From: Prochlorococcus sp. AG-679-M23 | GTDB lineage: Bacteria; Cyanobacteriota; Cyanobacteriia; PCC-6307; Cyanobiaceae | NCBI GenBank assembly: GCA_003208875.1 | Contig: QCUR01000003.1 | Coordinates: 128,001-192,000, forward strand | Length of the DNA: 64,000 bases | Direction of reading: 5' to 3' | In this document: in pieces, positions 31,394 through 46,964 of the stretch | Layout: the number at the start of each line of letters is the position of its first letter | Position numbering within the stretch: the stretch's first letter is position 1 | Position numbers and translations under genes: made by a program | Notes under the pieces: generated by a model | What the model was told of the DNA's origin: nothing | Databases searched by the model: none | Seen by the model: the letters and a program-made list of their open reading frames with translations, nothing else

Positions 31394-32923
31394 ATGGAAT
31401 TAATAGAAAAACTACAACCTATTAAAAAGCCCTTAATGGTTTTAGGTACATCTAGCGGGGCAGGTAAATCTTTAACAGTTACGGCCATAGGCAGGATTCT
31501 TAAAAATTCAGGAGAAAAACCAATACCTTTTAAAGGCCAAAATATGAGTAACAATGCATGGGTTGATTGGAATGGCGGAGAGATGGCATTTTCTCAAGCT
31601 TTACAAGCATTTGCTTGCGGGATAATTCCTTCTTCGGAGATGAATCCTATCCTATTAAAACCACAAGGGAATTCAACTAGTGAAGTCATTCATTTAGGAA
31701 GAAGTATGGGTATCACAACAGCAAAAGATTACTACAAAGATTGGTTTTCCTCTGGATGGGAAGTAATTAAAGAAAGTTTGAATTCAATATATGAACGACA
31801 CCCAAATTGTCGTTTAATTATTGAGGGGGCAGGAAGTCCTGTAGAGATGAATTTAATTCACAGAGACCTTACGAACTTAAGAGTTGCAAAGTATTTAAAT
31901 GCGAATTGCATTTTAGTAACTGATATCGAAAGAGGAGGCGTATTTGCTCAAATAATAGGAACTCTTGAGTTAATGAAACCGGAAGAAAGAAAACTCATTA
32001 AAGGTATATTAATAAACAGATTTAGAGGGGACCTTTCATTATTTGAAGAAGGTAAAAAATGGATAGAAAACAAAACAAAAATCCCTGTTTTAGGAATAAT
32101 TCCTTGGTTAAATGATAAATTTCCTCCAGAGGATTCTTTAGATTTATTAGAAAAAAAATCATCTGTAACCAACCCTGAAATAAAGGTTGGAATTATCAAA
32201 TTGCCATCTATAAGTAACTTTTCAGATTTTGATCCATTAGAAAATGAAGAATCAATATTAATCAAATGGGTAATGGAATCTCAAAATTTAAATCAATTTG
32301 ATTTTCTTATTATTCCTGGAAGTAAACAGACTATTCAAGATCAACAATTTCTTAGAGATTCTGGTCTATCAAAAGATATAAAAAATTATTCAAAGAATAA
32401 AGGTAATATTTTTGGAATTTGCGGAGGTTTACAAATGTTAGGAACAATTCTTGAAGACCCATTTTTTAAAGAAGGATCAAAAATCAATTTAGAGAAATCA
32501 ATTAATGGAATTGGATTACTCCCTTTAAAAACAACTTTCCTTCAAAAAAAGATAACAAGGCAAATAAATTCTGAGTCAATTTGGCCGCAAGTTACAGAAA
32601 TCAACGGGTTTGAGATACATAACGGGGTAACTGAATTAGATAATAGTCAAGATACTTTTAAAATAAAACCTATTTTTAAGGATTTAGATCTTGGTTGGTA
32701 TAAAGAAAATATTCAAGGAGGGACTATTGCAGGTACATATATTCATGGAATCTTTGAAAATGATTACTGGCGAGATCACTATTTAAATTTAATTAGAAAA
32801 GGGAAAAACTTACCTTTATTAGACAAGAGAACAAGATCTTATAAAATGAAACGGGAAAACATTATTGATAATCTCGCAAATGAATTTAAAAAAAATTTTA
32901 ATATTTCATCATTGTTAAATTGA
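31394..32923 (+). CDS. cobQ: Cobyric acid synthase
   Basis: GTSSGAGKS, PFKGQNMSNN, EGAGSP.E.NL, GICGGLQMLG and GTYIHG motifs. Confidence 0.97.
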   Translation: MELIEKLQPIKKPLMVLGTSSGAGKSLTVTAIGRILKNSGEKPIPFKGQNMSNNAWVDWNGGEMAFSQALQAFACGIIPSSEMNPILLKPQGNSTSEVIHLGRSMGITTAKDYYKDWFSSGWEVIKESLNSIYERHPNCRLIIEGAGSPVEMNLIHRDLTNLRVAKYLNANCILVTDIERGGVFAQIIGTLELMKPEERKLIKGILINRFRGDLSLFEEGKKWIENKTKIPVLGIIPWLNDKFPPEDSLDLLEKKSSVTNPEIKVGIIKLPSISNFSDFDPLENEESILIKWVMESQNLNQFDFLIIPGSKQTIQDQQFLRDSGLSKDIKNYSKNKGNIFGICGGLQMLGTILEDPFFKEGSKINLEKSINGIGLLPLKTTFLQKKITRQINSESIWPQVTEINGFEIHNGVTELDNSQDTFKIKPIFKDLDLGWYKENIQGGTIAGTYIHGIFENDYWRDHYLNLIRKGKNLPLLDKRTRSYKMKRENIIDNLANEFKKNFNISSLLN

Positions 32924-33171
32924 AACAATCAAAAATTAAAATTATATGGCCAAATAACATCGAGACATATGCCTCAGAAGGAGACGATTGGTTTTCAATT
33001 GCTGAAAAGGTAGGTTTTGAAATTCCAACTGGATGTTTAACGGGGAGTTGTGGAGCTTGTGAAATAGATGTTAATGGCGAAACGGTGAGAGCTTGTATAA
33101 GCAATATTCAAAGTAAAAAAGATTGTTCATTAAGCGTTTCTTTTACTACTGACCCTTTCTGGGAAAATTAA
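32920..33171 (+). CDS. 2Fe-2S ferredoxin-like protein
   Basis: IPTGCLTGSCGACE...RAC. Confidence 0.88.
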   Translation: MKQSKIKIIWPNNIETYASEGDDWFSIAEKVGFEIPTGCLTGSCGACEIDVNGETVRACISNIQSKKDCSLSVSFTTDPFWEN

Positions 33172-33209: not shown

Positions 33210-33221
33210 ACGGAGAGGGTG
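33210..33221. repeat. att-like core copy 1 (distal island boundary)
   Basis: ACGGAGAGGGTG, identical to 44630-44641 at the tRNA-Ser 3' end. Confidence 0.9.
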
Positions 33222-33289
33222 AATTACATCACACACCATATAGGTAGATATTGGAATACATGGGACTCATTTTTGAGTAGTAAAGGCAT

Positions 33290-33306
33290 ATCCACCAACA
33301 TATCCA
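33290..33306. repeat. ATCCACCAACA arm-like motif at the cassette A left end
   Basis: ATCCACCAACATATCCA, starting 79 bp from the CGGAG core. Confidence 0.75.
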
Positions 33307-33372
33307 AGAAAACATTATTGGTATGAATAAGAATACTTTGGACGATAATGGAAAAAAAAATATTGAGTTTGC

Positions 33373-33467
33373 AAAAAAAAACCCCTATTTCTAGAGGTTT
33401 TTTTCTGGTTTTACTGAATCAAGTGTTTCCTTGTTTCCACTGTTTCAGTGAAACCTCTCCTACACAC
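33373..33467 (-). ncRNA. yfr2: Yfr2-family sRNA
   Basis: Minus strand: 5' GTGTGTAGGAG leader, hairpin with GGAAACAAGGAAACA in the loop, terminator hairpin plus U9; TAATAT -10 box upstream. Confidence 0.85.
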
Positions 33468-33568
33468 ATACATATATTAGATCATAAAAATTTTTTTCGT
33501 GAAGGGGGTGAGTAATATTACTTAATTGTCACATTTACCAGTTTCGGCCTTTAATACTTAATTGCATT

Positions 33569-33656
33569 AAAAAACACCCTAATTCTCAAGAATCAGAGCG
33601 TTAATATCAGAAATTAGTGTGTGAGGAGTTTCTAATGTTATTAATCTAATAGAAAA
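33569..33656 (-). ncRNA. Yfr1/Yfr10-like sRNA
   Basis: ACTCCTCACAC (33629-33619) between a 5' hairpin (TTTCTA..TAGAAA) and an imperfect 3' stem ending in U6; ends approximate. Confidence 0.7.
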
Positions 33657-33682
33657 GATCTCAATTCTGTGTAGTGTTAACA

Positions 33683-33901
33683 CTATTTCTTTTCCCAAAA
33701 TAGATAAAGATTTGAAAACTGATTTTTAGTATCTACTACTGCAGTGCTTGTTGAGATTAACTTCCAACCGGCAGAATTACGTTTTCTCATAATTGCTGCA
33801 ATCTCATTTTCTTGTCTTTGAGTATTTGCATTGCCTACTGCGTAATAGATATCAAGATCATTTTCTACATATGACATATTTAAATGTGCTGGTTTATTCA
33901 A
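33683..33901 (-). CDS. Small hypothetical protein
   Basis: 72-aa ORF with ...GWKLIS...LYLFWEK; true start may be an internal Met. Confidence 0.65.
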   Translation of the reverse strand: MNKPAHLNMSYVENDLDIYYAVGNANTQRQENEIAAIMRKRNSAGWKLISTSTAVVDTKNQFSNLYLFWEKK

Positions 33902-34323
33902 AGTTAATAATACTCAATCTTTCATCGATACTGAAATGGATTCGATAGGGTTATTAGAAATAAGTATTGTATGGTTTTACCTTCACCTCAAATTGCAATT
34001 GGATTATTGCTTATAAGTATTGGAATCGTAGTCACCTTTGATATCAAAATTGATTTATTTAAAGGTAAAGAGTAAAAGACAAAAGTTGGATATCTGGCAA
34101 AATGATTATATTAATTTGTTCAAAGAATAATCTTGTCAATTAAAGAACGCAATTACGATAATGATGGAACAGATCCATCAGAAGAATATTTTAGAAAGAA
34201 GAAAAAAGATAATGATGATGATACCTACTTCCCCTTAGAAGAATCAGAACCACCACATTATTAAGAACAGTAGAAAATTTATTGACAGATTCTTTAAAAT
34301 TAAAAAAATAAAAAAATTTAAAT

Positions 34324-34728
34324 ATGACTGAACAAAGGAAAATAGAGAAATTTGGAGTCGGGAATTTGTATCCTGATATTCATCCACCAGAATTTTCATT
34401 CTTTAAAAAAAAATGTATAGATGTAGCAATTGGATATGATGATGGTTTTACTTTCACTCCTAAATTTGGGAATTTTAAAGAAACTGAAGATATTTTTGAT
34501 TACCTAAAACAATATCTTGAAGATAAAGAATTAGAAAAATTAGATATTCGTTTTGATACCTTAAAAACTTGTATATACCAAATAAATCCTGAGACATTAG
34601 AACTTGGAGAATTATTGGAATGTGAAGGAAGTGATGTTAAATATTTTGAATGGAATAAACAAACTAAAAGTTTTGAAGAGGTTGAATCAAATTCACTAAG
34701 TGATGAAGAAGAAGAATATTTTCACTAA
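34324..34728 (+). CDS. Acidic hypothetical protein
   Basis: 134-aa ORF with ATG start. Confidence 0.7.
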   Translation: MTEQRKIEKFGVGNLYPDIHPPEFSFFKKKCIDVAIGYDDGFTFTPKFGNFKETEDIFDYLKQYLEDKELEKLDIRFDTLKTCIYQINPETLELGELLECEGSDVKYFEWNKQTKSFEEVESNSLSDEEEEYFH

Positions 34729-34985
34729 GTAATGATAATTCATATTTCCCTTCAGAAGAAACAGAGCAAGTTGAGACATTAATAAAATGAATAAAGAGCA
34801 TAATTATGAAGAAGGATTATTTAATTACGTTGTTTTGAAGGAAGAAAAGGAAGTGATCTTTTATTTACATAATCCCTATCCAGATTGCTTAAAAATTCCA
34901 GATATAATGAAACAAAGGTTTCCTAGTGATTCAAGAGCATAGTTGTAAATTCTTTGGATGATTTCAAAAAGTATGGAGCAAAAAG

Positions 34986-35168
34986 TTGAGCACTAAATGG
35001 GATGACACTTCATGGCAGAAAGAGTTCTTGAATATGAAGGCACATTCGCCTTCAGATGCCAAACTCTTAATGGGAGGTGTAAAAGGATTGAAAGGTGCTT
35101 GGCGTTTAGGTGTTCTGCACGTTGAATACGAAAGACTGAAGAAAGCACAAGAGCAGCAACAACAATGA
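34986..35168 (+). CDS. Small hypothetical protein
   Basis: 60 aa; GGAG upstream; similar to the next ORF. Confidence 0.65.
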   Translation: MSTKWDDTSWQKEFLNMKAHSPSDAKLLMGGVKGLKGAWRLGVLHVEYERLKKAQEQQQQ

Positions 35169-35332
35169 AAGAAGAAACAAATTGGAAAAAAGAATTACTA
35201 GAAAGTAAGAAGTTCAATAATAAATTTTCAAAAAATATATTAGAAAATGGTGCAAAGAATTATATGCAAGAAATCTATATAGGATATATGTATACCCGAT
35301 GGAGAAAAATTAGAGAGAAATCTATACTATAA
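35165..35332 (+). CDS. Small hypothetical protein (55 aa), probable paralogue of the preceding ORF, not in the track
   Basis: ATGA overlap; MKEETNWKKELLESKKFNNKFSKNILENGAKNYMQEIYIGYMYTRWRKIREKSIL*. Confidence 0.6.
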   Translation: MKEETNWKKELLESKKFNNKFSKNILENGAKNYMQEIYIGYMYTRWRKIREKSIL

Positions 35333-35514
35333 GCATTACCATAAGTACCTACCACATCCCAAAAAGCATTCCACAACATTTTGATGGTGGTTATAGCGTT
35401 AATTTCAAAATGAGAATATAAAACTTTAAATCTATATAAAAACAACTATCCTGTATTTACAGGCATTTTAAAGGATTAATTGTCACAAAAAAAGGTATAA
35501 GGATCTAAAAATAT

Positions 35515-35527
35515 ACGGAGAGGGTGG
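35515..35527. repeat. att-like core copy 2
   Basis: ACGGAGAGGGTGG, a 13-bp match to the tRNA-Ser end. Confidence 0.9.
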
Positions 35528-35602
35528 ACATAGAATTCAATCTAGAATTCCAGTGTAGACCTACTCTGACCACAGTTTAGTTTAGTAATTCATATGAAAC
35601 CT

Positions 35603-35620
35603 TGAGACAACCTAGAGACA
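35603..35620. repeat. Cassette B left arm-like repeat
   Basis: TGAGACAACCTAGAGACA; 17/18 identical to 43174-43191. Confidence 0.8.
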
Positions 35621-35846
35621 TTTTAGTTTTTATTACTTAATCGATGGATTTAATTTATTGACTACAAATATGGGTCTTCATCACATAGTTATTTCAACTG
35701 ATTTAGAAGCAAAGAGTATAAAAAGAATTTCAACTGAGAATAATAGTGACCATGATGGAATAAGTTGTTTAATTAATTTTTAAAAGTTAACCAATGAAAA
35801 TTAATATGGCACAATAAATATGATTTAGGAAATCCAAAAAATTATT

Positions 35847-36197
35847 GTGGATACTGCTGATAAACTTTCGATTCTTCAAGAGAGCGTAAACGCTTTCTTC
35901 ATTAAATTTTTTGATGGAATGTATCCAGAGAGAGTAGACAGAGATCCTGATTTAGTTAAGTTAAAACGAATTGGAAATCTCAACCAATTCAATGGAATTG
36001 ATAAGGATTTCCCTGATTTTGATATTAAAATGGATATCACGAAAGCATTTACTCATATTATTGAACACGGTGATGGAATTGAAATGCTTAAGGAAGAAAA
36101 TGTTCCATTTGAAGATAGTGTTGAAAGATTAGTTTTGGAAGAACTTACAAATACTGAGAATAGATATGGATATGATTTCAATGATGATGTTGAATAA
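35847..36197 (+). CDS. Acidic hypothetical protein
   Basis: 116-aa ORF, GTG start, abutting the next gene. Confidence 0.7.
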   Translation: MDTADKLSILQESVNAFFIKFFDGMYPERVDRDPDLVKLKRIGNLNQFNGIDKDFPDFDIKMDITKAFTHIIEHGDGIEMLKEENVPFEDSVERLVLEELTNTENRYGYDFNDDVE

Positions 36198-36545
36198 ATG
36201 AAAAAACTATTTCTTCTAATTTTAATATTTGGTTTTAATACTCCTGTAAATGCAGAACAATATCAAAGGCACAAATATACTTGCCCAGAATCTCAAAGTG
36301 AATGTAATGAAGGAGAAATAGCAGCAATTAAATTAGTAAATGACACTTATTGGGAAATGCTTTCAGAGAGAATCAAGGAAAATAAACATTATAAGTATCC
36401 TTGGTATTGGGTTTACAAAAAGGGGGAGTGTAAATATTCTGTCGCTGCGAAGGAAGATATGCCAAAGCATACAGTCACTATGGAATGGATTGATGTTGAT
36501 ATTTGCGAAAAAACCACTAAATTGTTGGATCTAAGACGCAGATGA
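36198..36545 (+). CDS. Small secreted protein with four Cys
   Basis: Signal peptide MKKLFLLILIFGFNTPVNA. Confidence 0.75.
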   Translation: MKKLFLLILIFGFNTPVNAEQYQRHKYTCPESQSECNEGEIAAIKLVNDTYWEMLSERIKENKHYKYPWYWVYKKGECKYSVAAKEDMPKHTVTMEWIDVDICEKTTKLLDLRRR

Positions 36546-36625
36546 AAATTAAAAAAAATATTCTCTCTAAGATTGCTAATCGATCATTATCCCAATTGGG
36601 TTCTTTTCTCATTGATTAAGACTAA

Positions 36626-39600
36626 TTAACTTGCAACTAATTCTTCTCCTAGAGTTTCTGCTTGTTGTAGAACAGTCTCAACTGCAGTAATTTGTTCATC
36701 TGGTGGATACTTATATCTCTTCAAAAGTGTTTTGATTTTAAGTCTCAGTTTTGCCCTGACATTTTCTTTATATTGCCAGTCAATATTTGCATCTCTCCTC
36801 ATAATTTCTGCAAGTTCTCTTGCCATATTTGCAAGAACTTCTTCTTTCAAAAGTTTATGAGCAGATGGGTTGTCTGCTAAAGCATCATAGAAAGATTGTT
36901 CTGCAGAAGATAAACCTAATGCAATCCCACGTTCTAAATCTTCTCTGAATTTCTTTGCCATTTCAATTAGTTCTTCTATTACTTGTGCTGCTTCTATCGC
37001 CCTGTTTTCATATTTTTGCAATGATTTAGAAAGCATTTCACTAAAGTTTTTCTGCTTCACAACATTTGTTCTGAACTTACTTTTTACTTCATCATTTATG
37101 AGTTTTTGAAGCAATTCAACTGCTAAATTTTTCTGTGGGATCTTACTTACTTCTGATAAGAATTGATCTGACATGATACTTATATCTGGATTCTTGAGAC
37201 CAGCAACTTTGAATACATCAGTTATTCCATCAGAGACTAATGATTCAGATAGAAGTTGTTGTAATTCAAACCCATAAGTTTGAGGTGGACGTACAACAAT
37301 ATCTCCTTTTATTAGCATTGCTCTTATTGCTTGAAGGAATGCTATTTCAGGACTATGTTCAAGTGCTTCATCAGTTGTTCCACAAAGAGCAAATGCTTTC
37401 GTTATTTTTAGAACTGTATTGCAGAATCTTTTCTTCCCATCATCTATCTCGAGAATATGGTCAAGACAATTTGGAATAATGTCTAATGCTTTTCCTTTCT
37501 CTCTAAAGTGACCCCATTCAACAGGATGTAAGAGATCTTCTGCTATTTGAATTTGTTCAAGAAGTACACGAACTGCTTCACTGGTATCAAGTTTTATTTC
37601 CCCTTTTCCGTTTGCTGCTGTGTAAGTAGCAAGTGCCTCTTTGAGTTGTGGAGCAATACCTATGTAATCAACAATCAGTCCACCTGGTTTATCCTTGAAA
37701 ACTCTATTGACTCTTGCAATTGCTTGAGCAAGATTTGCTTCTTTCATTGGTTTATCTACGTACATAGTTGCTAAACAAGGTGCATCAAAACCCGTCAACC
37801 ACATATCTCTTACAAGAACGATTTTGAGTGGATCATTTGGATCTTTGAATCTATTCTCTAAATCTTTTTTTTGTTGTTTGCTTGTGTGATGAGGTTGAAG
37901 AAGTTCCGACTCAGAAGCAGATGCAGTCATGACAACTTTTACAGAACCTTTCATATGATCCGAATCTTTCCATGCTGGTTTGAGATCGACTATCTCGTTG
38001 TAAAGACGTGCACAGATTTCTCTACTCATTCCAACAATCAATGCTTTTCCAGGTTGCGTTTTAGATCTTTGTTCATAGTGGGCAATAAGATCTTTTGCTA
38101 CTTGTTTGAGTCGAGGTTCTGCTCCTACTAATGCTTCTAATGCTGCCCATCTACTTTTCGCCTTTTCAGTAGAAGAAATATCATCTTCATTTTCAAAAAT
38201 TTCATCAAACCTACTATCTAAACTCGGAGTACTGCTTTCTTTGAGTTTTAGTTTTGCTAGTCTTGACTCGTAATAAATTGGAACTGTTGCTCCATCATCT
38301 ACTGCTTGCTGAATATCATAAATAGAAACGTAATGACCAAAGACTGCTTGTGTATCTCGATCATCTTGAGAAATTGGAGTTCCTGTAAATGCCAAGAAAG
38401 TTGCGTTTGGAAGAGCATCCCTCAGTCCTTTTGCTAATCCATATTTCACTTCTCCTGTCTTTGAATCAATTCTTCCTTTGAAACCATATTGAGTTCGATG
38501 TGCCTCATCACAAATCACCACAATATTTTTTCTATCAGTCAATGCAGGGAATTTTTCTTCGTCCTTTTCTGTTGCAAATTTTTGAATGGTTGTAAAAATA
38601 ATTCCTCCACTAGGTCTGTTATCTAATAGATCTCTTAGATCTTTTCTTGACTCTGCTTGCTTAGGTTTTTCTCCCAATAAATCTCCAGATCCAGTAAAGA
38701 CACCAAATAACTGACCATCAAGATCTTGCCTATCAGTGACCATTACTAAGGTGGGATTTTGAAGTCTTTTATCGGTTAGAAGTTTTCCTGCTAAACATGC
38801 CATCTCGATACTTTTTCCTGCACCTTGCGTATGCCAAACAACTCCACCTTTGCGATCACCATCTGGTTTACTTGCCTCTATGACTCTTTCGACTGCAGTA
38901 TTGACTGCATAGAACTGATGATAAGCAGCAATCTTTTTGATAATTTCTTTTTCTTCTTCAAAGACACAGAATGAACGTATGAAATCTAATAATCTTTTTT
39001 TATCGAATAATCCTCTAACTAAGGTTTCTAATTGTTTGAACTTTCCAAGTGGATCTAAATCTTGTTCTTTTTCAATAACTCTCCATTGCTGGAATCTTTC
39101 CTCATTCGCAGAAAGCGATCCTACTTTTGCATAAGTACCATCACTAATAACTAATAGAACATTTGGAGTAAATAAATCAGGAATATCTACTTTATAAGTT
39201 CTTAGTTGATTGAAAGCGTCCCAGATATCAGTTTTTTCATTTGCTGGATTCTTGAGTTCAATTACTGCAATTGGGAGACCATTTATATAAACAACAACAT
39301 CAGGTCTACGATTATTTTTTGGACCACTAATTGCTAATTGATTGACGACTAACCAATCATTTTTATCAGGATTATCAAAATCAATAATTCTTAGTCGGAT
39401 TCCAATTTCTTGGTTACCTTCCATGTAAGAAATAGGAAGTCCTTTGGTCATCCATATGTGAAATTGACGATTCGAAGCAACTAATCCAGGAATATTTGGA
39501 TTGGTTATTTGTAGAACTGCTGAATCAATAGTTTTACTAGGAACTTCAGGATTCAATTTTATAAGTGCAGACTTCAAACGAACTGTTAGATAAACTTGTC

Positions 39601-39727
39601 TGAAATCAATTCTTTCAGGAGAGTCTCCATCAGGAGCAATATTTGGACCATAAACATATTGATATCCGAGATCTTCAAACCATTCAATTGAAGTTTCTTC
39701 TATTAGATTTTCATCTATCAATGACAT
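36626..39727 (-). CDS. hsdR: Type I restriction endonuclease R subunit
   Basis: RPD...IELK nuclease motif, WHTQGAGKS Walker A, DEAHR, FTGTP, LTGFDAP, QAIARVNR. Confidence 0.97.
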   Translation of the reverse strand: MSLIDENLIEETSIEWFEDLGYQYVYGPNIAPDGDSPERIDFRQVYLTVRLKSALIKLNPEVPSKTIDSAVLQITNPNIPGLVASNRQFHIWMTKGLPISYMEGNQEIGIRLRIIDFDNPDKNDWLVVNQLAISGPKNNRRPDVVVYINGLPIAVIELKNPANEKTDIWDAFNQLRTYKVDIPDLFTPNVLLVISDGTYAKVGSLSANEERFQQWRVIEKEQDLDPLGKFKQLETLVRGLFDKKRLLDFIRSFCVFEEEKEIIKKIAAYHQFYAVNTAVERVIEASKPDGDRKGGVVWHTQGAGKSIEMACLAGKLLTDKRLQNPTLVMVTDRQDLDGQLFGVFTGSGDLLGEKPKQAESRKDLRDLLDNRPSGGIIFTTIQKFATEKDEEKFPALTDRKNIVVICDEAHRTQYGFKGRIDSKTGEVKYGLAKGLRDALPNATFLAFTGTPISQDDRDTQAVFGHYVSIYDIQQAVDDGATVPIYYESRLAKLKLKESSTPSLDSRFDEIFENEDDISSTEKAKSRWAALEALVGAEPRLKQVAKDLIAHYEQRSKTQPGKALIVGMSREICARLYNEIVDLKPAWKDSDHMKGSVKVVMTASASESELLQPHHTSKQQKKDLENRFKDPNDPLKIVLVRDMWLTGFDAPCLATMYVDKPMKEANLAQAIARVNRVFKDKPGGLIVDYIGIAPQLKEALATYTAANGKGEIKLDTSEAVRVLLEQIQIAEDLLHPVEWGHFREKGKALDIIPNCLDHILEIDDGKKRFCNTVLKITKAFALCGTTDEALEHSPEIAFLQAIRAMLIKGDIVVRPPQTYGFELQQLLSESLVSDGITDVFKVAGLKNPDISIMSDQFLSEVSKIPQKNLAVELLQKLINDEVKSKFRTNVVKQKNFSEMLSKSLQKYENRAIEAAQVIEELIEMAKKFREDLERGIALGLSSAEQSFYDALADNPSAHKLLKEEVLANMARELAEIMRRDANIDWQYKENVRAKLRLKIKTLLKRYKYPPDEQITAVETVLQQAETLGEELVAS

Positions 39728-41040
39728 TAGATACCAACCTCATCAATCATTCTTTCTGCATCAGAAATTATGAGTTCTCCCGAAACTAGTCTTGGAAGCA
39801 ATGTATCTCTAAGTTCTTCTAGCAACATATTAGAAACTATATTCGAAGTTCTTTTTTTGAATAATAATAAGGCAATTTTTTCGTAGCGTTCGCATATTTT
39901 ATTAGGAGGCACAATAATCTTTAATTTTCTACAATCTTCTCTTCTTAGAAATCCTCTTGCACTTCCAGAAACCCATGAAGTAATTTCTTTGACCTTATTA
40001 CTAAAGGAATAGTAAGTAAACATTTGGTCAATACTATTATTTTTTGATCTAATTCTCCACATATTTTGATTTAGTAAAGATGGAACAATATCACTTGAAA
40101 CCAAACCTATTTTGCCTAAAGTTGCCCCAACCATTACAAATAACGTATCACCTTCAAGTAATTCAAATTTTCTAAATTCATCAAATTTATCTTTCTCAAT
40201 AAAGACAGCATCCTTTTTATTGATAAAAGAATCTTCTCCAATGTTTAGTGTTCTAACTATAAAAGATCCTTTTGTAGTGTAATCCTTACTTTTGAAAGCA
40301 TATCCGCCACTCAAATCTGCAATTTCATCTAATTCTTTTACTTGCCATCCTTTTGGAATCTCTCCTAATTCAGAATCTTCAAATGAATCTGGAAATAAAT
40401 TACTAATCTCGTCAGGTAATCCAGTTGAGAGACCTTCTACTTTTGCTTTTACAGGATCAAAATCTATAAACCAAGATTTGAAAAGTGCTTTTGCTATTTC
40501 TTCAAGAGTTTCATTAGTTTTTTGATTGATTTCAATTTTTTTATCAAGGGTTCCAATGATATGTGCAATTGCTTTTTGTTCATGGAGAGGAGGATATTCA
40601 AATTCAAATCTTCCTAAAACCTTTGCATTTGCTCCTGCTTGTGCAGAACCAGTTTTTGAACCCCTTACGAAATTCCACCATGAGGAACTTCTCATACATC
40701 GCCATACATATGAAGGATCCACAATTTGTTTATTTACGCGAAATCTTATGAGGTAAGAAGCAAAAACCACAAAAGATTCTCCTTGAAATAAATAATTTTC
40801 TCCAGTACTATTTCCTGTTCTCGCAACAACAATATCTCCATCGTTCAAAAGATATTTTGATTTTGAGGATGAATCTATTTCGCAGAATGGAACATCTCTC
40901 CATTGCACAAAACCATTTTGAATATCTGTAATTCTTAGGAATTTTGTGCCAGTATTTTCATCTGTTGCACTTGCTGTAAAACCATACTCGATTTTTTCTG
41001 AGACGTCAGCAAGTGAAGTTTTTTTCCAATTACTATTCAT
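39727..41040 (-). CDS. hsdS: Type I restriction specificity subunit
   Basis: Two TRDs; PPL.EQKAIA..LDKKIE, central ALFKSWF...ELGEIPKGW, terminal LRDTLLPRLVSGEL. Confidence 0.96.
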   Translation of the reverse strand: MNSNWKKTSLADVSEKIEYGFTASATDENTGTKFLRITDIQNGFVQWRDVPFCEIDSSSKSKYLLNDGDIVVARTGNSTGENYLFQGESFVVFASYLIRFRVNKQIVDPSYVWRCMRSSSWWNFVRGSKTGSAQAGANAKVLGRFEFEYPPLHEQKAIAHIIGTLDKKIEINQKTNETLEEIAKALFKSWFIDFDPVKAKVEGLSTGLPDEISNLFPDSFEDSELGEIPKGWQVKELDEIADLSGGYAFKSKDYTTKGSFIVRTLNIGEDSFINKKDAVFIEKDKFDEFRKFELLEGDTLFVMVGATLGKIGLVSSDIVPSLLNQNMWRIRSKNNSIDQMFTYYSFSNKVKEITSWVSGSARGFLRREDCRKLKIIVPPNKICERYEKIALLLFKKRTSNIVSNMLLEELRDTLLPRLVSGELIISDAERMIDEVGI

Positions 41041-42607
41041 ATCCTATACGATTCAAATTCTCAGCAATTTTTTGATCTAATTTTGCTCCCTCTTCCTGTT
41101 GTGTTTTGAGTAAAGAGGTAAGTCTTTTCATCTTTTCATCAAAAGGTTCACCATCATCCTCTTCTTCTGGAGCACCAACATATCGTCCAGGAGTTAGAGC
41201 AAAACTATTCTTTTCAATCTCTTCAAACTTTGCGTTGTAGCAGAAACCTGCAACGTCCTCATACTCATCATCTTTACGCCAAGATTGGACAGTATCTGCA
41301 ATCTTAGAAATATCTCCATCAGTGAGAATTCTCTCAACTCGATTTTTCATTGTTCCCATTTGGCGAGCATCAATGAATAAAGTTTCTCCTTTTCTATCTC
41401 TACCTCTTTGAGTTTTATCGTTAGTCAAAAACCATAAACAAACTGGAATTTGGGTATTCAAAAATAATTGCCCAGGCAATGCAACCATAACTTCAACCAC
41501 ATCTTTTTTGACCATCTCTTCTCGAATATTCCCCTCATTACTTGTATTAGAACTCATAGATCCATTTGCAAGAACTACTCCTGCTTGACCACCTGGTCTC
41601 AACTTCCAAAGCATATGTTGTAACCATGCATAGTTAGCATTTCCTGCTGGTGGTCTTCCATATGCCCAGCGAACATCACTTTCATATTTTTCCCCACCCC
41701 AATCAGAAATATTGAAGGGTGGATTAGCGAGTATGTAATCAAATTTTTGATCAAGATGCTGATCTCTTGCAAAAGTATCTGCAGGTTCTTGTCCTAAATC
41801 GGCAGAAAAACCCCTAATTGCAAGGTTTATTGCTGCTAATCGCCAAGTAGTAGGATTACTTTCTTGACCATAAATTGAAATAGCATCTCTTTCTCCTCCA
41901 TGTGCTTCTATAAATCTTTCACTTTGAACAAACATTCCACCTGATCCACAACATGGATCATAAACTCGACCTTTATCAGGAGATAAAACTGCAACTAATG
42001 TTTTTACAACGTGAGAAGGAGTATAGAATTGTCCTCCTTTTTTTCCTTCAGCACTTGCAAATTGACCCAAAAAGTATTCAAAAACTTCACCTAAAACATC
42101 TCCCGAATTTTCTTGCTCAGTGAAACCAACGGTTGAAAAAAGATCTATTAGTTGTCCTAATATTCCAAATTCTAATTGAGCAGTACTAAATCTTTTATCT
42201 AACTTTCCCCTTAGGTCTGAGTTTTCATTCTCAATCGAAACCAATGCTTTATCAATACGCTGACCAATATCAGGTTGTTTTGCTTGATTTCTAAGTTCTT
42301 CCCATCGGGCATCTTTTGGAACCCAAAACACATTTGCTTGAGTGTAATAATCTCTATCTTCTAATGCCTCTTGATGATCTTTAGGATCATCTCCAAGAAA
42401 ATAATCTGAGTCTGGGGTGCTAACTATTTCTAATACTTTTTTCTGATGTTCAACAAAGGTATCCGAAACAAATTTTAGAAATATCAATGGAAGAACAAGA
42501 TTCTTATATTCAGCAGCATCCATTTGAGCACGTAATTTATCTGCACTTGCCCAAAGAACTGCTTTGAAATCTTTTGGAGTATCTTCTTTCTTTTTAGGAA
42601 TGACCAA
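41033..42607 (-). CDS. hsdM: Type I DNA methyltransferase M subunit (m6A)
   Basis: LW..ADKLR, GQFYTP, YDPCCGSGGMF (motif I) and NPPF (motif IV). Confidence 0.97.
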   Translation of the reverse strand: MVIPKKKEDTPKDFKAVLWASADKLRAQMDAAEYKNLVLPLIFLKFVSDTFVEHQKKVLEIVSTPDSDYFLGDDPKDHQEALEDRDYYTQANVFWVPKDARWEELRNQAKQPDIGQRIDKALVSIENENSDLRGKLDKRFSTAQLEFGILGQLIDLFSTVGFTEQENSGDVLGEVFEYFLGQFASAEGKKGGQFYTPSHVVKTLVAVLSPDKGRVYDPCCGSGGMFVQSERFIEAHGGERDAISIYGQESNPTTWRLAAINLAIRGFSADLGQEPADTFARDQHLDQKFDYILANPPFNISDWGGEKYESDVRWAYGRPPAGNANYAWLQHMLWKLRPGGQAGVVLANGSMSSNTSNEGNIREEMVKKDVVEVMVALPGQLFLNTQIPVCLWFLTNDKTQRGRDRKGETLFIDARQMGTMKNRVERILTDGDISKIADTVQSWRKDDEYEDVAGFCYNAKFEEIEKNSFALTPGRYVGAPEEEDDGEPFDEKMKRLTSLLKTQQEEGAKLDQKIAENLNRIGYE

Positions 42608-42719
42608 TAAAAAATAATTGCTCTTATTTTATACCTAATTGCTATTTTGTTTGATTCAATGCTTACTTTCTGACATGCGATTTGTTATTTTTTTAATTAG
42701 TTAAAGAGCGAATAAAATC

Positions 42720-42914
42720 ATGATTACTAATAAGAGATACCAAACGTTATTAATGCTTGCGACAACAGGCAAACCTTTAAATAAAGACGCTACAGAAGAA
42801 GAAAAGAAATTCTACGAAGAATGTAAACATGACTATAAAGTCATGAAAGAAACCGCAAAGAAAAAGGGCATAAAGAATCCAATTTTAGAAATACCAATGG
42901 AAGTTGATTTTTAG
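42720..42914 (+). CDS. Small hypothetical protein
   Basis: 64-aa ORF with ATG start. Confidence 0.65.
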   Translation: MITNKRYQTLLMLATTGKPLNKDATEEEKKFYEECKHDYKVMKETAKKKGIKNPILEIPMEVDF

Positions 42915-42921
42915 AGAAATA

Positions 42922-43113
42922 ATGCAACCACCAAAGACCTCTGAAGAATTAACAGAAATGTATCCCGATCTAGAACCTTGGCAAAGGGATGAACTAGAAA
43001 TTTGGCACAGAGGATGGATTACTAAATTAATGACTGGAGATGCAACATCAAAAGAATATAATGCTGCAATACCTCCTCATCCAGATCCTCATCACCCTGA
43101 AGATGATGAGTAA
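42922..43113 (+). CDS. Small acidic hypothetical protein
   Basis: MQPPKTSEELTEMYPDLEPWQRDELE...; ATG 7 bp after the previous stop. Confidence 0.65.
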   Translation: MQPPKTSEELTEMYPDLEPWQRDELEIWHRGWITKLMTGDATSKEYNAAIPPHPDPHHPEDDE

Positions 43114-43146
43114 AATAAGGTTTGAAAATTATTTGTATCTCTAAAA

Positions 43147-43191
43147 AACCTAGAGACTTTAAAAAAATAACCCTGAGACAACATAGAGACA
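43147..43191. repeat. Cassette B right arm-like repeats
   Basis: AACCTAGAGAC (43147-43157) and TGAGACAACATAGAGACA (43174-43191). Confidence 0.8.
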
Positions 43192-43314
43192 AGAGTGGTC
43201 ATTGTGGTAACTTATAAAAGTCAAACGGGTTAAAGAATACCTAAAACAACTCAGTCATAACAGTGAATCTGGACATTCTGACCAATTCTGACTACATCTT
43301 ATTTGTATAAAAAT

Positions 43315-43326
43315 ACGGAGAGGGTG
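43315..43326. repeat. att-like core copy 3
   Basis: ACGGAGAGGGTG. Confidence 0.9.
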
Positions 43327-43396
43327 AAATTCACTTTCGTGTTTTAACGGCAGATACAGGAACATCTGGGATGGTTAAAGGGATGTAGAGGCAAAT

Positions 43397-43420
43397 ATCC
43401 ACCAACACATCCACCAACAC
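43397..43420. repeat. Cassette C left arm-like tandem
   Basis: ATCCACCAACAC x2, starting 81 bp from the core. Confidence 0.85.
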
Positions 43421-43529
43421 CAAAAACTTGCCTATATTGGACGATATTGGATTGATAAATCTGTATATAAATTACAATTTTATATATATTTTTTTCTAGG
43501 GATATAATTATCAAAATATTTAATAAAAA

Positions 43530-44417
43530 ATGAAAACACTCTATTCATTTTTAGTTTCATTATTAGTAATACCTTTTTCAACAACTATAGGACTAGGGTC
43601 TTTATATTTTTATAGTGAACTTGCAATTTTCACTAGAGAAGCAAAAGCAACAAACTGGAATGCATTTAATCTAAATTTTAAAAAAGGGTTGAGATATCTT
43701 GATAAGGGTGAATATCAAAAGGCACTTGATGCTTACAACAGAGTAATTAAAATTTATGCACTTGATGGACCTAGTTTCTACAACAGAGGCACAGCATATT
43801 TAGGATTAGGAAAATACAATGAGGCAATTAAAGACTTTTTAAAATCAATTAAATACGATAATGAGAAAGGCAACCAATATGCTTATAACAATATTGCAGT
43901 CGCATACGATAATCTTGGAGATTACAAAAATGCCCTTAAATATATCAACTTAGCAATAGATGCGTACCCTAAATTTGGACTTTATTTTCACAATCGTGCT
44001 TACTATAATTTGGAGTTAGAAAATTTCAAAGATGCAGAAAAAGATTATGCGAAAGCAAAAGAAGTTTACTTAAAATATAAAAGTACAAGAATGATTGGAG
44101 ATTGTCCAAAAGTTAAGAATCTAGAGCATTGCAAACTAGATTCTTGGTTCTATAACGATTTAGGTTATGCAAAAGAGAGTTTAGGAGATTTTAGAGGAGC
44201 ATTGGTTAATTACGATAAAGCAATAGAAATAAATTATCCAAATCCAAATGAAGAAAAATTTATCATATTCAATAATCGGGGAAATACAAGATATGAATTA
44301 GGTGATGAGAAGGGTGCTTGTAAAGATTACAAGTTTGCTGCATCAATAGGTGACGCGGAAGGAGTTGAGTGGTTGAAATCAAAGGATGGTAAATGGTGCG
44401 GAGAAATGGAATTTTAA
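43530..44417 (+). CDS. Tetratricopeptide-repeat protein with N-terminal hydrophobic segment
   Basis: Repeated YNRG.AY..LG.Y..A..D TPR units; C-terminal GAC.DY..AA..G. Confidence 0.9.
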   Translation: MKTLYSFLVSLLVIPFSTTIGLGSLYFYSELAIFTREAKATNWNAFNLNFKKGLRYLDKGEYQKALDAYNRVIKIYALDGPSFYNRGTAYLGLGKYNEAIKDFLKSIKYDNEKGNQYAYNNIAVAYDNLGDYKNALKYINLAIDAYPKFGLYFHNRAYYNLELENFKDAEKDYAKAKEVYLKYKSTRMIGDCPKVKNLEHCKLDSWFYNDLGYAKESLGDFRGALVNYDKAIEINYPNPNEEKFIIFNNRGNTRYELGDEKGACKDYKFAASIGDAEGVEWLKSKDGKWCGEMEF

Positions 44418-44432
44418 AACATAAAAAGATTT

Positions 44433-44520
44433 ATCCACCAACACATACTTTCTCCATCAAATATCCACCAACACATCAAAAAATATCCACCAACATATCC
44501 ACCAACATATCCACCAACAC
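44433..44520. repeat. Cassette C right arm-like repeat cluster
   Basis: ATCCACCAACA at 44433, 44463, 44485, 44497 and 44509; the last three in 12-bp tandem. Confidence 0.9.
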
Positions 44521-44630
44521 ATTTATGCATATACTGGTAAATGTTGGATTATATAGGACAAACAACTTCTCTAAAATCCCATTTTGACCGCATTTTTGCC
44601 AACATAGCACTTCACAGGATGATAATTAAA

Positions 44631-44715
44631 CGGAGAGGGTGGGATTCGAACCCACGAATAGTTACCTATTAAACGATTTCGAATCGTTCGCTTTCGACCA
44701 CTCAGCCACCTCTCC
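44631..44715 (-). tRNA. tRNA-Ser (anticodon CGA)
   Basis: GGAGAGG/CCTCTCC acceptor stem, AACGA-TTCGAAA-TCGTT anticodon arm, long variable arm, GTGGG-TTCGAAT-CCCAC T arm; CCA not encoded. Confidence 0.97.
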
Positions 44716-44766
44716 GTAATTAAATAATATATAAAATTTATAAATTCGTTTTTTTTATCTTATTTA

Positions 44767-45798
44767 TTAATTCCAACCCGCTTCTTTCATCATTTTGATT
44801 GCGAGAGAATTATTTTCACCTAACTCATCTACCGTGACTTTATCAGAAGTAAACTCCCCAAAGTTTTTGACTATTTCATTTTGATTAACTTCATTTAAAG
44901 GATGTTCAAAAGTAGGTGCGGCTAAACCCTTACTTCCTTCTGGTGAGGCTAAAAATTCAAGCAATTTTATAGCTTCAGACTTGTTAGTAGCATATCTAGC
45001 AACACCTCCAGCACTAATGTTTACGTGTGCAGGATTGGGTGTAATAACAGACGTTTTTTTTGCATATAAAGAATCTCTTCTTCCATTAACACCGGCAAGC
45101 ATTCTTGCAACATAGTAGTGATTGACAATCCCGACACCACATTTTTTCTTGGAAACTGCTCTTACTATTGCAATATCACCTGGGAAGAAAGGTTTAGAAA
45201 CATTAGAAATCATTCCACTTAACCAAGCTTTAGTTTCAGTCTCACCTTTATTAACTATTTGATTAGCTACCAGAGATTGGTTGTAAGGACTTTTTCTATT
45301 TCTTAAACATACTTTCCCTTTTAAAGAGGGATCAGCTAGATCCGAATAGTCCCTTATTTTATTAACATCCACAACTTTTGGATTAGCAACCATGACCCTA
45401 ACTCTTCTAGTTAGCGCATACCATTCCCTACCTGGATCTTTTAAACCATCTGGAACATCGTTCTCTAAATTTGATGAGTCAATTCTTTGCAGCAAACCTG
45501 CTTTTGCAGCATTAGTTATTCTTGCTGCATCAACAAGCAAAATCACATCTGCTTGAGAATTTTTTCCTTCTCTTTTTAATCTTTCAATTAAAGATATCCC
45601 GGCAGCTTCAATAAGTCTTACTTTTATCCCAGTTTCTTCCGCAAATTTCTTATAAACTCCTCTATCGGTATTGTAATGTCTTCCTGAATAAACTTTCACT
45701 TCTTTTTCAGTTGAGTTAACAGGTATATTTGTATTAAATAAGAAAGTAAGGGTCAAAGCTGAATAAAAAAGTCTTTTTAGTTTTTGCACTTTTATCAA
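44767..45798 (-). CDS. futA: Fe(3+) ABC transporter substrate-binding protein FutA/IdiA
   Basis: VYSGRHY, YNQSL, VNHYY and HVNIS motifs. Confidence 0.95.
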   Translation of the reverse strand: MIKVQKLKRLFYSALTLTFLFNTNIPVNSTEKEVKVYSGRHYNTDRGVYKKFAEETGIKVRLIEAAGISLIERLKREGKNSQADVILLVDAARITNAAKAGLLQRIDSSNLENDVPDGLKDPGREWYALTRRVRVMVANPKVVDVNKIRDYSDLADPSLKGKVCLRNRKSPYNQSLVANQIVNKGETETKAWLSGMISNVSKPFFPGDIAIVRAVSKKKCGVGIVNHYYVARMLAGVNGRRDSLYAKKTSVITPNPAHVNISAGGVARYATNKSEAIKLLEFLASPEGSKGLAAPTFEHPLNEVNQNEIVKNFGEFTSDKVTVDELGENNSLAIKMMKEAGWN

Positions 45799-46557: not shown

Positions 46558-46632
46558 AGAAACATTTTATACATGCTGAAGAAATTAGTTATTTAATTAT
46601 TTAATATATTAATAGTTAAGTTTAAATTTAAA

Positions 46633-46872
46633 ATGCCTAAAAGAAGTGCAATAGCATTATTTGTAGCAGCAACAAGTGCCCTTTCCATAGCGGCAACAGA
46701 GGATATTTCCTTGAAAGCCGGAGAAAATGATATGGGAGGTTTAAAAGAATGGAATACTGATATGCCAGTTAACTCAGATTTTATATTGGATGAAGCAGCC
46801 CAAAAATTAGCTGATGAAGCTGCTAAATCAAGTATGTGTATACCAATTGGAGAGGGTGAAAACTGCTGGTAA
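46633..46872 (+). CDS. Small secreted acidic protein ending CIPIGEGENCW
   Basis: Signal-peptide-like N-terminus; C-terminal Cys pair; followed by a terminator. Confidence 0.75.
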   Translation: MPKRSAIALFVAATSALSIAATEDISLKAGENDMGGLKEWNTDMPVNSDFILDEAAQKLADEAAKSSMCIPIGEGENCW

Positions 46873-46919
46873 AAAAATTTCCTAATATCAACAACAAAGT
46901 AAATATTTAAGTAGTTAAA

Positions 46920-46947
46920 AAAAAACGCCCTATTCAGGGCGTTTTTT
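46920..46947. terminator. Bidirectional intrinsic terminator
   Basis: AAAAAACGCCCT-attc-AGGGCGTTTTTT between convergent genes. Confidence 0.88.
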
Positions 46948-46964
46948 AGTTTCAAAATCTAGTT

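Follow-up and report, generated by a model that had tools for sequence, protein, structure and literature searches.

The window analysed here, a stretch of 64,000 nucleotides from Prochlorococcus sp. AG-679-M23 (assembly GCA_003208875.1, contig QCUR01000003.1, positions 128,001 to 192,000), holds an 11.4-kb island between a small 2Fe-2S ferredoxin gene (Fer2) and the only tRNA gene of the window, tRNA-Ser(CGA). The island is made up of three cassettes in tandem, A (2.3 kb), B (7.8 kb), and C (1.3 kb), each bounded by direct copies of a short core derived from the tRNA. It is likely that these cassettes are non-autonomous elements which became stacked as they integrated one after another at the 3′ end of tRNA-Ser, and which depend on the arm-binding tyrosine integrases of rare autonomous relatives. 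This reading is carried by the array and its attachment-site (att) architecture, by an empty site and variable occupancy in related genomes, by the recurrence of the same ends around different cargo, by cognate integrases beside the same arm repeats and core, and by the absence of integrase remnants.

Core and arm repeats of the array

The core, ACGGAGAGGGTG, is present as four exact direct copies on the plus strand, at positions 33210, 35515, 43315, and 44630; a search tolerating one mismatch found no other match in the window. The number expected by chance in the window is 0.05, and none of 100 shuffled sequences reached four copies. Across the whole genome (1,645,990 bases) the repeat is found nowhere besides these four places, which lie 2305, 7800, and 1315 bp apart. 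Given the position and strand of the tRNA gene according to ARAGORN and Rfam, ACGGAGAGGGTG corresponds to the last 11 nt of tRNA-Ser(CGA) plus one flanking downstream base. At core copy 2, three contigs of one metagenome run pass directly into tRNA sequence. As read by eye, the core region, AATTAAAC-GGAGAGG-GTGAAATT, forms an imperfect inverted repeat with a 7-bp center, which would fit the pattern expected of core-type sites around an overlap region; crossover would then fall within GGAGAGG.

The cassettes also carry short direct repeats at a distance from the core, as putative arm-type sites. The 10-mer ATCCACCAAC has one copy inside core 1 and two copies inside core 3, in both cases about 70 nt from the core, and a further five copies in the region 110–200 nt before the tRNA core; every copy is in the same orientation. 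All eight copies at the locus extend to the longer form ATCCACCAACA, which is absent from the rest of the genome; the only other exact ATCCACCAAC 10-mers in the genome are three isolated ones away from the locus. Cassette B has repeats of another type (GAGACA), represented by TGAGACAACCTAGAGACA near its left end and by TGAGACAACATAGAGACA and one further copy near its right end. Cores bound all three cassettes. B and C have arms just within each of their two junctions, and A has them just within its left one, so that attL and attR sites are retained.

When the two ends of cassette C are joined across the core, the resulting order is five repeats, 110 nt, core, 70 nt, and two repeats. Judged from the sequence, this order reads as the attP layout of lambda/P4-type systems with arm-type sites, and it matches the layout seen beside integrases in six metagenome contigs (L045, L061, L069, L075, L083, and L085; L-numbers denote loci and contigs and G-numbers denote genomes, G000 being that of the window). 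The features shared by the junctions are the identical 12-nt tRNA-derived core and the direct arm repeats; no common palindromic, attC-like unit is seen among them. The arm repeat, (T)ATCCAC(C), is in our estimation DnaA-box-like, and the repeats might presumably double as a replication origin.

Variant arms are found at the same core elsewhere. In L009 (19580–19838), a cargo-less 258-bp unit has the arm variant ATCCCACAACAC together with a related ATCTCACAACAC copy; the arm variant ATCCCTAACAC lies at the core in L070 (3668–3788); and an element in genome G150 has an arm repeat of its own, TTTTTACATGTGT. Because these variants occur at one and the same core, several integrase/arm specificities appear to use it.

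No recombinase (PF00589 included) was detected by Pfam among 11 chosen island ORFs (open reading frames) of at least 64 aa, and a tblastn search of the window with six integrases of the relevant families as queries (E ≤ 0.01) returned neither an integrase nor a remnant of one. Replication genes (primase, helicase, or polymerase) were likewise not detected by Pfam in cassettes A–C. The original prediction, drawn from the window alone, had proposed four 12-nt copies composed of the tRNA 3′ 11 nt and one further base, three cassettes of about 2.3 kb (sRNAs and small ORFs), 7.8 kb (type I restriction-modification), and 1.3 kb (one TPR gene), no recombinase-like ORF inside them, and room for one cargo gene in cassette C. 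The exact copies and the ARAGORN/Rfam placement, the core spacings and the Pfam/Rfam matches, the two negative integrase searches, and the lone 295-aa TPR gene of cassette C agree with these points in turn.

The locus in related genomes

Comparison was made with a sample of 285 genomes of the genus, many of them incomplete. tRNA-Ser(CGA) and the solute-binding protein gene that flanks it were found in 199 of 201 genus genomes, and in a first batch of 20 of these the 20 kb next to the tRNA, in the direction of the island, was compared. Of these 20 loci, 17 include the ferredoxin gene; the rest comprise one contig that ends at 4.3 kb and two loci with an island of more than 20 kb. The Fer2 stop codon and the tRNA are 35 bp apart in L008, 258 bp apart in L009, and 1.25–14 kb apart in the remaining 15, and the loci have one to three cores. 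L008 is an empty site, consisting of the ferredoxin stop, about 30 AT-rich bases, and the tRNA with a single core. In the window, an AT-rich spacer of about 38 bp separates the Fer2 stop from core copy 1. Because this spacer resembles that of L008, core 1 is read as the displaced host copy and everything to the right of it as inserted.

The cargo of the first-batch loci includes type I and type III-like restriction-modification (R-M) systems, sugar and lipopolysaccharide genes, a rhomboid protease, 2-oxoglutarate oxygenases, and TPR proteins. No integrase was found among their 101 ORFs of at least 90 aa (Pfam, E ≤ 1e-4). The order of cassettes varies as well: in L012 an RNA cassette like A adjoins the tRNA, and a type I system lies further out. 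The original prediction had proposed this comparison, naming fixed content in all relatives as a finding that would speak against it; what was found is an empty site and a set of variable cassettes, with a Fer2-to-tRNA spacer of 35 bp to 14 kb in the 17 relatives and of more than 20 kb in the two others. Nine of the 17 relatives that have the ferredoxin gene (L007, L010–L013, L015, L017, L019, and L022) share a gene of about 600–630 aa beside it, which has no Pfam match and is absent from the window's genome.

The arm doublet ATCCACCAACAYATCCACCAAC is present in 28 of the 285 genomes and has no match in the reversed control. Twenty of the 27 other genomes were fetched, and four more lay within the first batch; 19 of the 20 fetched loci have at least one flanking marker of the present locus, the twentieth being a 6-kb contig. 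The elements follow one plan, in which a core, 70 nt, and two arms form the left end and two to seven arms (mostly four or five), about 110 nt, and a core form the right end, over a total length of 0.2–6.1 kb. The cargo enclosed by these ends ranges from none to combinations of TPR proteins with a DnaB_C helicase (Table 1). Cargo-less units were also seen in metagenome contigs L051 and L060, within a size range of about 215–270 bp. Such units are made only of core, ends, and arm repeats, and fit a deletion between left and right arms. In the larger members L024, L025, L027, L030, and L042, several TPR proteins flank a helicase of about 310 aa that has a DnaB_C domain only, and L025 also has a small DnaA_N-like protein.

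No integrase was identified by Pfam in 61 of the 91 ORFs of at least 100 aa in the arm-doublet loci, the other 30 being recurrent flank genes (e.g. rhomboid), and tblastn with the six integrases found no integrase remnant across 40 related genomic loci searched in full. Cargo ORFs that might have been hidden recombinases were rejected as such: a 182-aa ORF looks like a membrane protein, ORFs of 241–257 aa have by eye a motif like that of S-adenosylmethionine-dependent methyltransferases, and ORFs of 145, 154, and 168 aa have no Pfam match.

The ends of B are shared in the same manner. The B-type GAGACA motif is found in five of the 285 genomes and has no match in the reversed control, and elements of 7.0–7.5 kb with B-type ends adjoin the tRNA in G052 (L017) and G008 (L104). 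The left end of cassette B is 95–96% identical in L017 and L104, and its right-end module recurs at 91–93% identity beside different cargo in L017, L104, and L036. Between such ends, G052 has a type III-like methylase and a helicase, and G008 has a different type I system and a YgjP-like protein; with the window's own operon, B-type ends hold three different R-M systems in three genomes (G000, G052, and G008). Because one pair of ends carries three such systems, the site appears to act as a swap point for phage defense.

The ends are also more alike than their hosts. The left end of cassette C is 93–98% identical in 13 loci, the integrase-bearing contig L069 being one of them, and genomes with left ends this close have a cobQ of 78.5–79.8% identity; the B ends are 91–96% identical compared with 79.2% for cobQ; the right end of cassette C is 82–92% identical in 19 loci. 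Two further findings had been named at the outset as counting against mobile cassettes, namely ends that never recur around other cargo and integrase remnants inside the cassettes. The same ends bound varied cargo, and no remnant was seen in the window or in the 40 related loci.

The most direct sign that integrase-less cassettes have moved between attachment sites comes from two tRNA-Ser genes. The tRNA-Ser(CGA) and tRNA-Ser(TGA) genes of the window's genome are identical in their last 26 nt. Contig L089 has an element with the same arm repeats at tRNA-Ser(TGA), its core differing by one base, and the methylase-nuclease cargo of this element is 86.9% identical over 2,223 bp, from arm to arm, to that of the cassette at tRNA-Ser(CGA) in L023. 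Both cassettes lack an integrase.

Integrases, mobilization, and alternative explanations

Among metagenome contigs, the arm doublet was found in 51, six of which have an ORF of 430–450 aa that starts about 5–10 nt from an arm cluster of two to four exact repeats. These six are L045, L061, L083, and L085 (about 50–53% G+C), L075 (37%), and L069 (34%). In each, about 120 nt separate the arm cluster from the core CGGAGAGGGTG, and a left end with two arms comes next. All six ORFs match PF00589 (Phage_integrase) and three match PF13356 (Arm-DNA-bind_3); a resolvase-type serine recombinase lies nearby in L061, L069, and L085, the three contigs tested. L069 and cassette C have left ends that are 96.9% identical, and in this contig an integrase-bearing unit is followed, across the core, by an integrase-less left end. 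The integrases of the four GC-rich contigs are only 34–37% identical to that of L069, and the sequences suggest that GC-rich relatives, perhaps marine Synechococcus or elements of theirs, use the same att system. Seven other contigs of 49–64% G+C have no core (L043, L049, L062, L071, L076, L081, and L093) and are probably unrelated matches. The arm doublet had no match in IMG/VR.

Homologues of the L069 integrase were detected in 25 of the 285 genus genomes at 26–36% identity, and 10 of these places were fetched. In G150 and G232 a distance of 180–210 nt separates the integrase from the 3′ end of tRNA-Ser(CGA), and its transcription runs away from the tRNA. Besides the integrase, the element in G150, of about 5 kb and bounded by the same core, has a resolvase and three small ORFs. 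tRNA-Ser(CGA) is therefore indeed targeted by integrase-bearing, tycheposon-type elements.

In the mechanism that we propose, site-specific recombination within the 11-bp core CGGAGAGGGTG would have brought each element to the 3′ end of the tRNA, with the newest element beside the tRNA and older ones pushed outward. The ATCCACCAAC repeats of A and C and the GAGACA-type repeats of B would serve as arm-type integrase binding sites, and the matching enzymes would be lambda/P4-type tyrosine integrases with an N-terminal arm-binding domain, supplied by rare autonomous tycheposon-type relatives that also carry a small serine recombinase. Such a helper could enter the cell or integrate beside the array, and its integrase could act on integrase-less units either in trans or, after accretion, in cis. 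It could excise one cassette, or several between outer cores, and carry them to another cell by a presumed transfer vehicle, so that the site would work as a swap point for cargo such as R-M systems. The original prediction had the cassettes as non-autonomous units mobilized in trans; their lack of integrases and the cognate integrases in six contigs support the former, whereas action in trans is a supposition, as no circle was seen and this genome has no candidate helper.

Several observations weigh against this reading. None of the 51 metagenome contigs contains a circle or attP junction of an integrase-less cassette, and none was seen in the contigs, all short, of four metagenome runs, which was the outcome of the search for circular junctions that the original prediction had advised. 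No close homologue of the L069 integrase is present in the 285 genus genomes (35–36% identity at best), and the window's genome has no homologue of it. The search of that genome for tRNA-Ser integrases, also advised, yielded no candidate helper: its two PF00589 matches are a 386-aa tyrosine recombinase and a 189-aa fragment near the start of contig C6, neither of them a resident helper, so the array would presumably be static until a helper arrives. For B-type ends no integrase was found, no metagenome scan having been aimed at them. In cassette A, the arm-like repeats of the right end are degenerate, and the segment 33365–34131 is found in many relatives at a host-like identity of about 78%, by reason of which part of the cassette may be fixed. 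Cassette A is best read as an old composite and fits the picture of active elements least, so that the prediction of three minimal cassettes must be qualified for A. Finally, the homology between L023 and L089 stops at the arm repeats, which makes homologous exchange at the repeats another possible route for this pair; together with the cargo-less units, it indicates that homologous recombination at repeats also shapes these elements.

Some candidate traces of excision were set aside. Terminal overlap was seen in none of the 51 contigs, and L070 was rejected as a circular form because it runs from the core into a different element type. Joints at 33108>44630 and 35602>43227, each in a single contig, have a short side of at most 30 letters and unknown content between their two sides, and were discounted as evidence. 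Contig cover is far lower over the interior of B than over A and the tRNA, but contig depth is unsuited to ranking and no inference was drawn.

The cassettes might alternatively be inert wreckage, that is, dead tycheposons that lost their integrase after insertion, with repeats left over and nothing moving. The tycheposon preprint, in the passages drawn on here, mentions islands that hold degenerated elements and scattered partial tRNAs (10.1101/2020.12.28.424599), and the missing helper, the degenerate right arms of cassette A, and the apparently vertical inheritance of part of that cassette would all be expected. Independent decay should, however, leave integrase fragments and ragged ends, and no fragment was found in the window or the 40 loci; the ends keep an identity of 91–98% across hosts with about 79% in cobQ, the same end modules, lacking an integrase, recur around many different cargoes, and one integrase-less cassette is present at two different tRNA-Ser genes. 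We therefore regard wreckage as an improbable account of the array as a whole. Shuffling by homologous recombination, in which RecA-type exchange through ends of 100–600 bp, arms, or core flanks moves the cargo and integrases acted only in the distant past, draws on the L023/L089 homology that ends at the arm repeats, on cargo-less units of about 215 bp that fit a left-right arm deletion, and on B ends that are long enough for homology. It is harder to reconcile with units that are each bounded by an exact 11-nt core duplication when the empty site has one core, with the identical architecture of integrase-bearing relatives, and with the report, in the part of the preprint covered, of no raised recombination at island flanks (10.1101/2020.12.28.424599), and we consider it less probable still.

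A host enzyme could in principle recombine the cores, as Xer does for dif-integrating elements. The 386-aa tyrosine recombinase, encoded at 163917–165074 of contig C4 in G000 (L001, 829–1989) between hemH and a cobalamin adenosyltransferase-like gene, is the sole full-length enzyme of its kind in the genome. Its conservation extends to 20 of the 24 genus genomes sampled and, at 43–46% identity, to 12 of 16 other genera of the class, and its role is probably one of housekeeping. The enzyme lacks an arm-binding domain, yet the elements have arm-type repeats that are found elsewhere beside arm-binding integrases; moreover, activity of a conserved enzyme predicts arrays in all genomes, and arm-type elements occur in only 28 of 285. 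This explanation is accordingly very hard to credit.

Stacking by the integrases of autonomous relatives hence remains the reading that we favor, and it invites a wider and more tentative one, which we hold to be possible but rather doubtful. Prochlorococcus and its neighbors may maintain a self-sustaining population of integrase-less cassettes, a tRNA-anchored counterpart of the integron, with docking ends of about 340 bp (tRNA-Ser core plus arms), served by the integrases of rare helpers, including those of GC-rich relatives, at two tRNA-Ser genes with the same 3′ end. If so, standardized docking ends would let defense genes and other cargo be excised, stacked, and exchanged.

Related systems and cassette contents

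Integrons are rows of promoter-less or single-gene cassettes at one chromosomal point, each with a recombination site, the recombinase being encoded outside them. Their hallmarks are a resident intI, an attI site, and a Pc promoter, and their attC sites are imperfect palindromes that recombine as folded single strands. The array in the window is similar in that site-bounded cassettes without a recombinase are stacked at one chromosomal point. In contrast, its head is a tRNA gene, there is no resident intI, attI, or Pc promoter, its sites consist of a tRNA-derived core and arm repeats rather than folded attC, and the matching recombinases are of the arm-binding lambda/P4 type. The term integron-like, used in the original prediction, therefore holds as an analogy only, with no resident integrase, attI, or attC present, and tandem accretion of cis-mobilizable elements (CIMEs) is the closer comparison.

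CIMEs, as described in the portions of the review that we draw on, keep attL and attR, lack integration and transfer genes, and can lie in tandem at a tRNA 3′ end (Guedon et al. 2017, PMC5704250). They are proposed to move once an autonomous element with a matching integrase integrates alongside, and their cis-mobilization has been shown experimentally (PMC5704250). The cassettes here likewise keep both junctions, contain no integrase or remnant (whether lost or never present), and stand in tandem at a tRNA. Unlike the CIMEs of these passages, which are relatives of conjugative or mobilizable elements of Firmicutes with conjugation as their vehicle, they are accompanied by no conjugation machinery, and the proposed helpers are of the tycheposon type. 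By analogy, the cassettes would be comparable to CIMEs, and the concept of attL/attR elements that move by accretion is already known (PMC5704250). A similar arrangement is reported for Dehalococcoides, where, according to the passages covered, tandem islands lie downstream of ssrA with 20-bp direct repeats of its 3′ end; some have an integration module, and 15 without one are suggested to be cis-mobilizable (McMurdie et al. 2011, PMC3146451). Those arrays share with the present one the tandem islands, with and without an integration module, at a single small-RNA gene; they differ in using a serine recombinase and a tmRNA target, and the passages covered mention no arm-type repeats.

Tycheposons are the nearest relatives. 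The sections of the preprint used here describe integration at tRNAs, tandem elements split by partial tRNAs, degenerated elements, and scattered partial tRNAs, and propose that most island material was left by transient elements, with vesicles or capsids as the vehicle (10.1101/2020.12.28.424599). By the definition given there, a tycheposon has a site-specific recombinase of its own, either a tyrosine recombinase from a single monophyletic clade or, rarely, a large serine recombinase, and primase, helicase, and polymerase genes are its replication hallmarks (10.1101/2020.12.28.424599). The likeness extends to integration at tRNA 3′ ends with partial-tRNA direct repeats, newer elements pushing older ones into the island in tandem, the tyrosine and small serine recombinases that are hallmarks of the autonomous relatives found here (L069 and G150), a DnaB-type helicase in larger members, and adaptive or defensive cargo. 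Cassettes A–C differ in having neither integrase nor replication genes, and their boundaries are sharp and conserved, whereas in the same sections elements were found through their integrases and degenerated fragments 'lack clear boundaries' (10.1101/2020.12.28.424599). Ser-cga is also absent from the seven island tRNAs given there (Pro-tgg, Ser-tga, Ala-ggc, Thr-ggt, Arg-tct, Met-cat, and tmRNA), although its last 26 nt are those of the listed Ser-tga (10.1101/2020.12.28.424599).

Arrays of this tycheposon-type, CIME-like kind are already known, and the present one is not a new category. A search for reports of integrase-less, arm-bearing cassettes at tRNA-Ser(CGA) of Prochlorococcus found none, the journal version of the tycheposon work and its supplements being outside its scope. 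Most island material in Prochlorococcus lies outside recognizable mobile elements, integrase-carrying ones accounting for 3.6% of it according to the part of the preprint covered (10.1101/2020.12.28.424599). For the arrival of the remainder, cassettes that lack an integrase but have sharp, conserved, integrase-compatible ends provide a route that is concrete and can be tested, and by which cargo could persist and spread without the cost of a recombinase of its own. The findings also add tRNA-Ser(CGA) to the island-seeding tRNAs, at least relative to the preprint's list (10.1101/2020.12.28.424599), and link this site to tRNA-Ser(TGA) through the identical 26-nt 3′ end.

Table 1. Features of the island and its flanks in the window, followed by units with cassette C-type ends in related loci
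Feature	Position	Strand	Remarks
Fer2 ferredoxin gene	32920–33171	+	Pfam Fer2; last core gene on distal (left) island side
Core copy 1	33210–33221	+	Distal copy; marks original tRNA-proximal host junction
Cassette A	33222–35514		Cyano-1 and Yfr10 RNAs, small ORFs
Cassette A left end, subtype L-b	33222–33316	+	One ATCCACCAAC arm at 33290–33299
Cyano-1 RNA, cassette A cargo	33402–33469	−	Rfam RF01701, 70.1 bits (gathering 41)
Yfr10 RNA, cassette A cargo	33559–33636	−	Rfam RF02362, 68.3 bits (gathering 43)
Two paralogous small ORFs of A (60, 55 aa)	34986–35332	+	PHROG 16908 and 869, function unknown
Core copy 2	35515–35526	+	A/B junction
Cassette B	35527–43314		Two small ORFs, minus-strand hsdR-hsdS-hsdM, two further small ORFs
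Cassette B left end	35527–35640	+	GAGACA-type repeats; TGAGACAACCTAGAGACA at 35603–35620
Two small ORFs of B (116, 115 aa)	35847–36545	+	No confident Pfam or PHROG match
Type I R-M operon, cassette B cargo	36626–42607	−	hsdR 36626–39727, hsdS 39727–41040, hsdM 41033–42607
Cassette B right-end module	42714–43314	+	Small ORFs 42720–42914 and 42904–43113; GAGACA-type repeats ~43148–43191
Core copy 3	43315–43326	+	B/C junction
Cassette C (1.3-kb unit)	43327–44629		One gene only (TPR)
Cassette C left end, subtype L-a	43327–43423	+	Two ATCCACCAAC arms, 43397 and 43409
TPR-repeat protein, 295 aa	43530–44417	+	Sole cassette C gene; Pfam TPR_1, TPR_2, TPR_8
Cassette C right end	44433–44629	+	Five ATCCACCAAC arms (44433–44518) and ~110-nt core-proximal segment
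Core copy 4	44631–44641		Last 11 nt of tRNA-Ser(CGA)
tRNA-Ser(CGA)	44630–44716 (ARAGORN); 44631–44715 (Rfam)	−	Sole tRNA gene of window
Solute-binding protein gene	44767–45798	−	Pfam SBP_bac_6, SBP_bac_11, SBP_bac_1, SBP_bac_8; futA/idiA-like according to the original prediction; tRNA-side core flank
~215-bp units	L033 10302–10517; L034 9392–9607; L036 9190–9405		No cargo
1.7-kb units	L006, L028, L031 (L042, ~1.6 kb)		Membrane-protein-like ORF and methyltransferase-like ORF
2.45-kb unit	L023		C5 methylase and ICEA-like nuclease
2.9-kb unit	L026		Window's TPR gene and MORN-repeat gene, same ends
3.3-kb unit	L030		TPR proteins and DnaB_C helicase
3.7-kb unit	L032		Sulfotransferases
5–6-kb units	L024, L025, L027		TPR proteins and DnaB_C helicase

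The left end of cassette A is 76–84% identical to the left ends of many related elements. Because the Cyano-1 and Yfr10 RNAs lie inside att-flanked units, in the window and in L012, they may have arrived as element cargo; in L012 the unit measures 1.8 kb and adjoins the tRNA. In many other relatives the same RNA segment of about 770 bp stands beside the rhomboid gene, with no core on the ferredoxin side. The 60- and 55-aa ORFs have homologues in 16 loci (e.g. L014, L024, L029, and L040), and their frames are kept in most of 17 homologous segments, indicating conservation at the protein level. In integrase-less elements of relatives their usual place is some 145 bp upstream of the right arm cluster, as if they belonged to the element backbone, and a role in excision or regulation is possible from their position.

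In cassette B, the products of the type I operon have the Pfam domains HSDR_N, SWI2_SNF2, and T1RH-like_C (hsdR), Methylase_S (hsdS), and N6_Mtase and HsdM_N (hsdM). The second of its two leftmost small ORFs (115 aa) shares 83% DNA identity with an ORF in the L017 element. Past the tRNA-side flank, two minus-strand ORFs at 46965–48248 (427 aa) and 46593–46955 (120 aa) have no Pfam match. The window as a whole has about 31% G+C and holds psbD-psbC and a pcb-like gene, features that, with the Yfr10 and Cyano-1 RNAs, point to a Prochlorococcus-like organism; on the left flank the gene order is psbD-psbC-maf-cobQ, followed by the ferredoxin gene.

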